Origin: Candidatus Omnitrophota bacterium
GTDB lineage: Bacteria > Omnitrophota > Gorgyraeia > Duberdicusellales > 4484-171
DNA: 64,000 nt
Direction: 5' to 3'
Assembly: GCA_021735655.1 (NCBI GenBank)
Contig: JAIPGM010000003.1
Coordinates: forward strand, 96,001-160,000
Both the position numbers and the translations under genes were made by a program. This document shows positions 50,230 through 52,315 of this stretch, piece after piece. Position 1 is the stretch's first letter, and each line of letters begins with the position of its first letter. The notes under the pieces were generated by a model. It did no database searches. It had not been told where the DNA came from and saw only the letters and a list, made by a program, of their open reading frames with translations.

Positions 50230-51375
50230 ATGAGTTCTTTAGGTGTGAGTCGCCAAGGAGTAAGAATCCTGTCTCCGAAGAGCGTCTATTCGGTTTTTAA
50301 AATTGAAGGGATTAAGTCTTGGGAGGCTAATATTCTTAAGCAGCATCTTCTTTCTCAGGGTTCAGATGCCGCCATAGAGAGAGATGCTTTGGTAAAAGAT
50401 ATAAGGACTGGAGCTTTGATCTTTGGCAGTTTCAGTCAGTTAAAAAATCTCTGTAAAAAACTTAAAAACCAGCCGTTTAATTTAAAAGAGATATCGCAAA
50501 CTTTGTCATTTTATTTAGATAATATTCATAAAGAAACTTATATTTTTAGGGCCAACAATAAGCAGCTCAAAATAAATAAGCCATTGGTTTGTGGAATTAT
50601 TAATATGACTCCGGATTCATTTTTTCAAGACGGGCTGCTTAACAAAGATCAGAAATATATACTAGAAAGAGTGGAAAAGATGCTTAAAGCCGGAGCTAAG
50701 ATGATTGATATCGGTGGCGAGTCAACACGGCCATTTTCAAAGCCAATAACCGAAAAAGAAGAATTAGCTAGAGTAATTCCAACCCTTAAGGCGATAAGGA
50801 AGCGTTTCAGGAAAGTTTTAATTTCTCTAGATAGCTATAAATATTTAGTGGTTAAAGCGGCCGCAGCTGAAGGTGTTGATTTAATCAATGATATTACTGC
50901 TTTAAACGGGGATTTGCGAAAAAGTTCAGTGATTAAGAACTATAAGCTGGGTTGTGTTCTTATGCATATGAAAGGTAAACCTCGAGATATGCAGAAAAAT
51001 CCTCATTATAAAGATGTTATTAGTGAGGAGTTAGATTTTTTTAAGGAGAGATTACAGTTTTGTCAGCGAATTGGTATAGATAAAGAACGGATAATGATTG
51101 ATCCGGGGATAGGTTTTGGTAAAGATTTAAACGATAACCTTAAGCTTATCAATCAGCTTTATAAATTTAAGGTTTTTGGTTTGCCTTTGTTTTTGGGTTT
51201 GTCGCGGAAGTCTTTTATTGGTAAAATACTTAAAAGTGAACCTGGTGAACGTTTAGTTGGTACTCTTTCAGCGACCATCCTTAGCGTGGGCCAAGGAGCA
51301 AACATTTTACGTACTCATGACGTTGCTGAGACGGTACAAGCTTTAAAAGTAGCTTCAAAAATAACCAATAACTAA
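50230..51375 (+). CDS. folP: dihydropteroate synthase with a ~110-aa N-terminal extension of unknown function
   Basis: Pterin-binding domain begins at LVCGIINMTPDSFFQDG, followed by GAKMIDIGGESTRP. Start is uncertain: ATG 50230, or 50179 overlapping ftsH. Confidence 0.75.
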   Translation: MSSLGVSRQGVRILSPKSVYSVFKIEGIKSWEANILKQHLLSQGSDAAIERDALVKDIRTGALIFGSFSQLKNLCKKLKNQPFNLKEISQTLSFYLDNIHKETYIFRANNKQLKINKPLVCGIINMTPDSFFQDGLLNKDQKYILERVEKMLKAGAKMIDIGGESTRPFSKPITEKEELARVIPTLKAIRKRFRKVLISLDSYKYLVVKAAAAEGVDLINDITALNGDLRKSSVIKNYKLGCVLMHMKGKPRDMQKNPHYKDVISEELDFFKERLQFCQRIGIDKERIMIDPGIGFGKDLNDNLKLINQLYKFKVFGLPLFLGLSRKSFIGKILKSEPGERLVGTLSATILSVGQGANILRTHDVAETVQALKVASKITNN

Positions 51376-52136
51376 TGGATTTTATTTTCAGACCTTTCAA
51401 TTGGAAAAATATTGTTGAGATAATAATTCTCTGGTTTGTTATCTACCGGATTTTTATTTTCCTGAAAGGCACGAAAGCCTTTTACCTTTTGCGAGGTATA
51501 ATATTTTTAGTAATTGCCCTGATAGCTTTTCATTTTTTGAGTTTTCCGGTGTTAACTAGATTGTTGGCTTATTTCTTTGCCTTTTTTATTATTTTAGTAG
51601 TTATTATTTTCCAGCCTGAGCTGCGGGAGGGTCTTATCCATTTAGGCAAACGTCATATTTTTTACATAGAACCAAAGAGAGAGGAGATCGAAAATACCTT
51701 GCGCGAAATTGTTGCCACTTCTGGTACTCTTTCACGGAAAAAAGTAGGCGCTTTAATTGCTATTAAAAGAGAAATTGCCCTTAAAAAGTTTGTTGAAAGC
51801 GGTGTAATTTTAAATGCTGACCTTACTTCCGAATTACTTCAAAATATTTTTTATCCTTTTGCCCCTTTGCATGACGGTGGAGTTATTGTCGAGGGAACAA
51901 AAGTAGTAGCATCTTCCTGCCTTTTTCCTCTTAGCGAGAATTCGAGCCTGGAGAAAACATTGGGAATGCGTCATCGGGCAGCAGTAGGTCTTTCTGAGCA
52001 TTCTGATGCAGTGGTAGTAGTTGTCTCTGAAGAAAATGGTTCAATTTCTTTAGCAATTAATGGACAGCTATCAAGAAATCTTGCACCTAATGACTTACTA
52101 ACAATTTTGAAAGGGCAATTTACAAAATCTCGCTAG
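51375..52136 (+). CDS. cdaA: diadenylate cyclase (c-di-AMP synthase), membrane-anchored CdaA type
   Basis: Three N-terminal TM helices. DisA_N motifs LHDGGVIV and GMRHRAA. Confidence 0.9.
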   Translation: MDFIFRPFNWKNIVEIIILWFVIYRIFIFLKGTKAFYLLRGIIFLVIALIAFHFLSFPVLTRLLAYFFAFFIILVVIIFQPELREGLIHLGKRHIFYIEPKREEIENTLREIVATSGTLSRKKVGALIAIKREIALKKFVESGVILNADLTSELLQNIFYPFAPLHDGGVIVEGTKVVASSCLFPLSENSSLEKTLGMRHRAAVGLSEHSDAVVVVVSEENGSISLAINGQLSRNLAPNDLLTILKGQFTKSR

Positions 52137-52177
52137 ACTTAAGATTAAAATGAATAATAAAACTAGAGAGGTGGTTT

Positions 52178-52315
52178 ATGGAGATTTTAAAAAAGATCAA
52201 TATTAAAAAAGCAATTACCCATAATTTTTGGCTTAAGTTGTTAGCTTTGATTCTTGCTGTTTTTGTTTGGCTATACGTAGCGGCAACTATTACTGGCGGG
52301 GGGCAACCAGCTTGA
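52178..52315 (+). pseudogene. 45-aa remnant of CdaR (YbbR) comprising only the N-terminal TM anchor
   Basis: AGAGAGGTGG RBS. MEILKKINIKKAITHNFWLKLLALILAVFVWLYVAA resembles the CdaR N-terminus. Stop overlaps the pdxJ start; no YbbR domains follow. Confidence 0.45.

Follow-up and report, generated by a model that had tools for sequence, protein, structure and literature searches.

The CdaR (YbbR) proteins of Bacillus subtilis, Listeria monocytogenes, Staphylococcus aureus and Streptococcus pneumoniae are encoded directly downstream of cdaA, in a gene order that continues with glmM. They are proteins of about 300-480 amino acids (aa) that combine a transmembrane (TM) domain with outward-facing, extracellular YbbR domains (PMC10636490). 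How CdaR controls CdaA, the essential cyclic di-AMP (c-di-AMP) cyclase, is unresolved, and the role of the CdaR ectodomain is debated (PMC10117814, PMC13508791); for the full-length protein both activation and inhibition of CdaA have been reported, depending on the setting (PMC10117814). Here we describe a locus from a Candidatus Omnitrophota metagenome-assembled genome (MAG) in which the place of cdaR is occupied by an open reading frame (ORF) of 45 codons. The window that we analysed, a stretch of 64,000 nucleotides (nt) with a GC content of 37% and hence AT-rich, carries this ORF, which we refer to as mini-cdaR, at 52178..52315 on the plus strand, between cdaA and pdxJ. It starts with ATG, and its product, MEILKKINIKKAITHNFWLKLLALILAVFVWLYVAATITGGGQPA, is deposited at NCBI as MCF7907915.1, "hypothetical protein K9L86_03435", encoded on a contig of 278,835 base pairs. 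An earlier sequence-only reading of this DNA had seen in it either a cdaR in decay or a minimal membrane peptide kept as a partner of CdaA. Our analysis argues for the second of these explanations, and we put the probability at roughly 70% that it represents a minimal CdaR, one that binds to CdaA in its membrane domain and has lost the extracytoplasmic sensor.

Profile comparison identifies the peptide as a genuine homologue of the N-terminal anchor of CdaR. When a profile of 120 family members was searched with HMMER against 1.84 billion representative proteins, 259 matches were obtained at E≤1e-3, and those of 112-437 aa aligned solely by an N-terminal stretch comprising the first 30-55 residues or so. 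The long matches include P0283 (349 aa, 1.4e-7), P0329 (437 aa), P0339, P0345, P0362, P0375 and P0384 (410 aa, 5.8e-5), all of which carry the Pfam domain YbbR, and the last of which clusters with an NCBI "CdaR family protein" of Caldicellulosiruptor diazotrophicus. YbbR was found in nine of ten long proteins scanned individually, in up to four stretches per protein, and in 33 of the 42 matches longer than 100 aa, among which no other family recurs. In the longer proteins, conservation falls on the very residues (N, W, L, K, A, W, Y, V) that are invariant in the peptides. An hhalign comparison of the family profile with one made from eleven longer proteins aligned peptide residues 6-41 to their N-termini with a probability of 98.9% and an E-value of 1.4e-17, a figure that is inflated by the choice of the eleven from among the matches of the first profile, so that the whole-library E-values are the unbiased ones. 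The formal profile search, in which the N-termini of YbbR-domain proteins were matched at whole-library E-values from 1.4e-7 to 5.8e-5, thus bears out the likeness to a CdaR TM anchor that the sequence-only reading had pointed out. Scans of the window peptide against Pfam (E≤1) and NCBIfam returned no match; neither collection has a model covering the CdaR anchor.

The gene immediately upstream (cdaA, 51375..52136, plus strand) specifies a protein of 253 aa that matches Pfam DAC (5.9e-39) and CdaA_N (1.5e-6) and scores 228.4 bits against the NCBIfam equivalog TIGR00159 ("diadenylate cyclase CdaA"), for which the cut-off is 188.8 bits. It is thus predicted to be a CdaA-type diadenylate cyclase, with a DAC domain and a three-helix N-terminal membrane domain. 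Mini-CdaR resembles the CdaR proteins described above in being encoded directly downstream of such a cyclase and in having an N-terminal single-pass anchor, with a common motif N-x-W-L-K...A...W-x-Y-V and an expected N-in/C-out orientation. It differs from them in its length (45 aa as opposed to about 300-480 aa), in having neither YbbR domains (Pfam PF07949) nor a disordered ectodomain, and in being followed by pdxJ-acpS-nnrD rather than glmM. Two features of cdaR, position and a homologous anchor, are therefore present, and two others, YbbR domains and linkage to glmM, are missing, and the gene is best called a domain-less CdaR variant, not a standard member of the family.

The lack of YbbR domains asserted by the sequence-only reading held up both in the Pfam scan and in a CdaR profile search of the 64-kb window translated in every frame, which matched the 45-codon ORF only, by profile positions 5-35. 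The same reading had allowed for a full-length cdaR that would emerge once a frameshift was corrected. This candidate is ruled out, as the ORF abuts pdxJ and no YbbR-like segment occurs in any frame. The active-site motif of GlmM was not found in the six-frame translation of the window.

Conservation of the ORF provides the second line of evidence. It is well-initiated, as had been proposed, with the ATG preceded by a Shine-Dalgarno sequence, agagaGGTGGttt, in the 41-nt spacer that separates it from cdaA (52137..52177, plus strand). A search with the single peptide sequence recovered eight more proteins, 44-45 aa in length and at least 63% identical, all encoded between cdaA and pdxJ. A scan for CdaA over one genome per GTDB species yielded 32 loci, 30 of which belong to Omnitrophota-type MAGs and have a CdaA 62-87% identical to that of the window. 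With one locus excluded (L011, which ends 61 nt after cdaA), 29 Omnitrophota species genomes were informative, and a hidden Markov model of the peptide run against the six frames of the loci gave a match directly after cdaA wherever the DNA was present (E 2e-11 to 3e-29) and no other match better than E = 0.8 in any locus. The orthologous ORFs are 39-50 aa long, are almost all ATG-started and in most loci are preceded by a Shine-Dalgarno-like GGAGG or GAGG motif; in the 30 other loci they lie -4 to 134 nt from the cdaA stop. Among the matches listed by the profile search were 120 clusters (90% identity), which all measure 39-63 aa and, where named, all come from Omnitrophota. Across the 120 aligned members N16, W18, L19, K20 and Y33 are invariant, and F17, L24, A27, W31, V34, T39 and G41 are at least 90% conserved. 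The two most distant cdaA loci, both high-GC (L039, from Eisenbacteria, and L040), do not count among the informative ones; no recognisable cdaR or mini-ORF was found downstream of cdaA in either.

The ratio of nonsynonymous to synonymous substitution rates (dN/dS), calculated by the method of Nei and Gojobori (NG86) for 12 locus pairs in which dS was unsaturated, ranged from 0.05 to 0.36 for mini-cdaR, with a median of ~0.12; for the same pairs it was 0.007-0.07 for cdaA and 0.06-0.15 for pdxJ, to which mini-cdaR is thus similar in this respect. The amino-acid sequence of mini-cdaR is under purifying selection. A chance ORF was rejected on the grounds that position, length and sequence are conserved across species and that dN/dS is low. 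As to how these genes are presently annotated, NCBI labels family members hypothetical, whereas the JGI pipeline has independently given several members of 41-46 aa (P0148, P0153, P0166 and P0231 among them) the name "YbbR domain-containing protein" despite the absence of that domain. Many third-party-annotation MAGs with this locus are titled "uncultured Planctomycetia" even though their CdaA is 62-87% identical to the Omnitrophota CdaA of the window.

These data also bear on the idea that the ORF is a decaying pseudogene, the 45 codons being the still-open 5' stub of a cdaR that was destroyed by deletion and no longer has any function. The idea has some appeal in that relatives carry longer CdaR genes in the same slot and in that cdaR is known to decay, a pseudogene having been reported in Lactococcus lactis MG1363 (PMC10117814), but it is hard to reconcile with the constant length (39-50 aa) and unbroken frame of the ORF in 30 species, even where CdaA identity is down to 62%, with dN/dS values of 0.05-0.36 rather than ~1, with five invariant residues in 120 sequences and conservation that reaches into the short tail (I38, T39 and G41), or with the retention of Shine-Dalgarno motifs. 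The L. lactis gene, the sole "short" cdaR that we found reported in the literature, is comparable insofar as it is a cdaA-adjacent cdaR from which the full protein is no longer made; there, however, the inactivation is at the level of a strain, whereas mini-cdaR is fixed across many species under purifying selection. Given conservation across at least 30 species and a dN/dS of ~0.1, we reject the decayed-cdaR explanation of the sequence-only reading as extremely improbable, and the same two observations support its alternative of a retained minimal membrane peptide.

The junction with pdxJ raises a different possibility. As the sequence-only reading had it, the end of the 45-codon ORF overlaps the start of the next gene: the TGA of mini-cdaR (52313-52315) shares two letters with the TTG of pdxJ (52312-52314), in the arrangement tTGa. 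Conceivably, then, the frame is maintained merely to bring ribosomes to a weak pdxJ start, with the sequence of the peptide being irrelevant. An overlap of this kind (tTGa or aTGa, a spacing of -4) is found in 12 of the 31 distinct loci, and the pdxJ start in the window is indeed a TTG. In 18 of the 31, however, the mini-ORF ends 2-234 nt before pdxJ and is still intact and equally well conserved, which argues that the frame is not a by-product of pdxJ. Moreover, purifying selection acts on the amino-acid sequence, beyond the openness of the frame, and the conserved residues match those of full-length CdaR anchors. Translational coupling may be an added role of the ORF, but as it is unable to explain the sequence conservation we think it very unlikely to be the whole story.

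A view of the same slot in other contigs places mini-cdaR within a series of sizes. In the window and in 30 species loci from Omnitrophota-type MAGs, the gene X in the order ftsH-folP-cdaA-X-pdxJ-acpS-nnrD encodes 39-50 aa without YbbR. The sequence-only reading had suggested that related genomes be checked for a full-length cdaR at this locus, and the outcome was divided, with none in the mini-gene clade and longer versions in other contigs. In a Logan contig with the order folP-cdaA-X-pdxJ-acpS-nnrD (L049), X has 70 aa (1644..1856), comprising the anchor and a hydrophilic tail of ~35 residues. X has 142 aa and one YbbR in an Omnitrophota MAG with the order ftsH-folP-cdaA-X-pdxJ-acpS-nnrD (L048), and 153 aa and again one YbbR in a second Logan contig with the order ftsH-folP-cdaA-X-pdxJ-nnrD (L041). 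The longest version, with 323 aa and three YbbR stretches, lies in the order dnaB-cdaA-X-pdxJ-acpS-nnrD (L043-L045; Omnitrophota MAG, RKY39881.1). The slot gene thus comes in sizes of ~320, 150, 70 and 45 aa with the anchor the same throughout, and mini-cdaR is the positional orthologue of cdaR. L041 and L043 are more distant relatives, as their CdaA is 44-48% identical to that of the window, compared with at least 62% inside the mini-gene clade. Since multi-YbbR CdaR is widely distributed outside the phylum, the direction of change was probably loss of the ectodomain.

The short Omnitrophota-type CdaR proteins, whether of 142-157 aa with one YbbR (P0309, P0270) or of 63-83 aa (P0275), share with the window form the slot, the anchor motif and a "YV.GE" sequence at the membrane exit, but they keep one YbbR or an outside tail of ~35 residues, whereas the window form ends ~10 residues past the helix. 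In the class of 63-83 aa, which comprises the L049 gene product as well as P0275, P0280, P0287 and P0292, the anchor is followed by a hydrophilic low-complexity tail without YbbR; this class may be an intermediate of the "anchor plus disordered tail" type.

The peptide itself consists of a K-rich N-terminal tail (residues 1-15), one TM helix (motif N16-F-W-L-K20...L24..A27...W31.Y33-V34) and, after it, ~10 residues that form a short tail. AlphaFold2, supplied with the family alignment, predicts a single helix over residues 3-39 with a mean predicted local distance difference test score of 76 overall and 94 over residues 21-30, and the 19-residue hydropathy maximum of the window peptide is 2.47, in the segment starting at residue 21. 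Five K or R residues precede the helix and none follows it. An N-in/C-out topology fits this layout, with the K-rich N-terminus presumably cytoplasmic and the short tail outside, which is also the orientation of full-length CdaR. In a helical-wheel projection N16, K20, S/A23, L24, A27, W31, V34 and I38 fall inside a 100-degree arc. The conservation moment compared with shuffles gave p = 0.008-0.015 for residues 16-34 and 12-38 and no significance for residues 14-36, so that the evidence for a conserved face is suggestive and varies with the range of residues considered. The family profile gave no match when PDB sequences were searched with it, and a search with full-length CdaR found only isolated YbbR domains (3LYW, 2KPU) and no structure of the anchor or of a CdaA-CdaR complex.

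The history that we favour begins with an ancestral cdaR that lay between cdaA and pdxJ and coded for a TM helix and extracytoplasmic YbbR domains. Within one large clade of Omnitrophota, this gene would have lost its entire ectodomain and kept the N-terminal membrane helix together with ~10 juxtamembrane residues. The 45-codon ORF is a real gene, predicted to be translated into an anchor-only CdaR, and it would be co-transcribed with cdaA and translationally coupled to pdxJ. We suspect that one face of the helix (N16, K20, S/A23, L24, A27, W31, V34) packs on the three-helix membrane domain of CdaA, and that the peptide serves as a small constitutive subunit that may determine how stable or how active the cyclase is, or its oligomeric state. 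A role as a membrane subunit of CdaA is suggested because the part of CdaR that was kept shares a compartment with the membrane domain of CdaA. Two-hybrid data have located the site at which CdaR contacts CdaA in the TM region of the latter (PMC6368335), and suppressors of a ybbR deletion in S. aureus map to G78V in TM helix 3 of DacA (PMC5207132). Sensing of the cell envelope by YbbR and disordered ectodomain, as in Firmicutes, would be lost: since both are absent, mini-CdaR should lack the kind of cell-wall sensing that has been proposed for the CdaR of Firmicutes.

Co-variation at the proposed interface offers a lead. The loci L016 and L017 represent the sole lineage in which W31 of the peptide is replaced by R, and their CdaA carries changes found in no other locus, namely F70A and F67I in TM helix 3 and I43F. 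The joint appearance of W31R and CdaA F70A/F67I fits a direct helix-helix contact and could be co-adaptation.

Several considerations weigh against the reading of the peptide as a CdaA-binding minimal CdaR. The W31R/CdaA co-change is a single lineage event and as such proves nothing, and both the inflated hhalign E-value and the sensitivity of the conserved face to the choice of residues subtract from the case. The survey for YbbR domains and glmM covers 64 kb of this genome and ~12 kb of each other genome. Finally, because full-length CdaR has been described as both an activator and an inhibitor, the sign of the effect that the peptide would have on CdaA is not predictable.

It could also be that the ORF encodes a membrane micro-protein that is functional but has exchanged CdaA for another partner, or has one besides it, for example a c-di-AMP phosphodiesterase or another envelope protein, or that the peptide is an insertion or stability factor without a regulating role. 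We consider this unlikely. The S. pneumoniae CdaR is reported to interact with Pde1 as well in two-hybrid assays, and possible roles beyond CdaA have been suggested (2026 preprint, 10.64898/2026.09.06.749708), but in every locus examined the ORF is strictly linked to cdaA and directly downstream of it, often with overlapping stop and start codons, and the peptide is homologous to that part of CdaR which shares the TM compartment of CdaA, where the two-hybrid contact was placed (PMC6368335).

KdpF, AcrZ, CydX and MgtS, small subunits of bacterial membrane complexes, are all shorter than 50 aa, have one TM helix and are encoded with or near the partner that they bind. Mini-CdaR has the corresponding properties of a small membrane-protein subunit, with fewer than 50 aa, one TM helix and a gene beside cdaA, and we propose a functional analogy with these proteins, which have no sequence relationship to it. 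None of the four is known to derive from a truncated multi-domain regulator.

The genes around cdaA and mini-cdaR, all on the plus strand, form a compact block. It begins with ftsH (48315..50222), a 635-aa ORF whose identical counterpart in L001 has Pfam AAA, Peptidase_M41 and FtsH_ext matches, and its gene order, ftsH-folP-cdaA-X-pdxJ-acpS-nnrD, is seen also in L002, L006, L041 (in the form given above) and L048. The gene for dihydropteroate synthase, folP (50179..51375), encodes 398 aa with a Pterin_bind match at residues 138-380 (1.9e-76), and its stop overlaps the start of cdaA (TAATG). Beyond mini-cdaR, as the sequence-only reading had anticipated and Pfam matches confirm, the operon runs on into pdxJ (pyridoxine 5'-phosphate synthase; 52312..53037; Pfam PdxJ 1.2e-87), acpS (holo-acyl carrier protein synthase; 53034..53396; ACPS 6.2e-16) and nnrD (NAD(P)H-hydrate dehydratase; 53341..54198; Carb_kinase 4e-52). 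Read from the TTG start, residues 2-233 of the pdxJ product align to positions 1-232 of the PdxJ profile; nnrD starts either at the TTG at 53341 or at the position equivalent to 53350 that was called on L001. No terminator-like site was found on the plus strand from folP to nnrD, and for this reason the folP-nnrD block looks like one transcription unit.

Some further features of the region deserve mention in their own right. Taken at its longest, the folP ORF begins 44 nt before ftsH ends (50179..50222), and the true start of folP may therefore lie downstream of 50179. FolP of the window has an N-terminal extension of ~135 aa (50179..50589, the N-terminal 137 aa) ahead of the pterin-binding domain, in which a Pfam scan gave no significant match (best E 0.046). 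The mini-CdaR loci and L048 have this extension (FolP of 398-405 aa), whereas L041 (306 aa) and L049 (276 aa) lack it. A cluster of tRNA-Thr(TGT), tRNA-Tyr(GTA) and tRNA-Gly(TCC) at 54214..54467 comes directly after nnrD, between it and gpsA, and tRNA-Pro(GGG) is found farther along at 56712..56790. At 56819..57169, a few kb from cdaA, there is a gene for a stand-alone PilZ-domain protein of 116 aa (Pfam 2.5e-11), a possible receptor for cyclic di-GMP; two PilZ genes occupy the equivalent region in L002.

Within the collection of papers that we searched, none linked Omnitrophota with CdaR or YbbR. At the level of annotation, the family calls for a correction: databases list its genes as "hypothetical protein" or, in error, as "YbbR domain-containing", and gene callers easily overlook them. 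For experiments, the conserved residues N16, W18, L19, K20, A27, W31 and Y33 are candidates for mutagenesis, and the peptide offers a minimal construct for use in model organisms.

One can go further and imagine, more speculatively, that in all bacteria CdaR acts through the TM helix alone as its effector module, with an N-x3-K-x2-S-L-x2-A-x3-W-x2-V stripe that docks on CdaA and sets its activity, and with YbbR domains and disordered ectodomains as an optional sensory add-on. We regard this generalisation as possible but on balance doubtful. If it were true, Omnitrophota would constitute a natural deletion series (323, ~150, 70 and 45 aa) in which the helix is both necessary and sufficient as a CdaA subunit, and the 45-aa form might inform the cyclase of a membrane property, for example tension or lipid state. 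Whatever the fate of this broader idea, the Omnitrophota locus is a natural experiment on which part of CdaR matters. That a clade has kept the anchor alone, in the slot where its relatives have versions with one or three YbbR domains, points to the TM helix as the indispensable, CdaA-contacting part of the protein.

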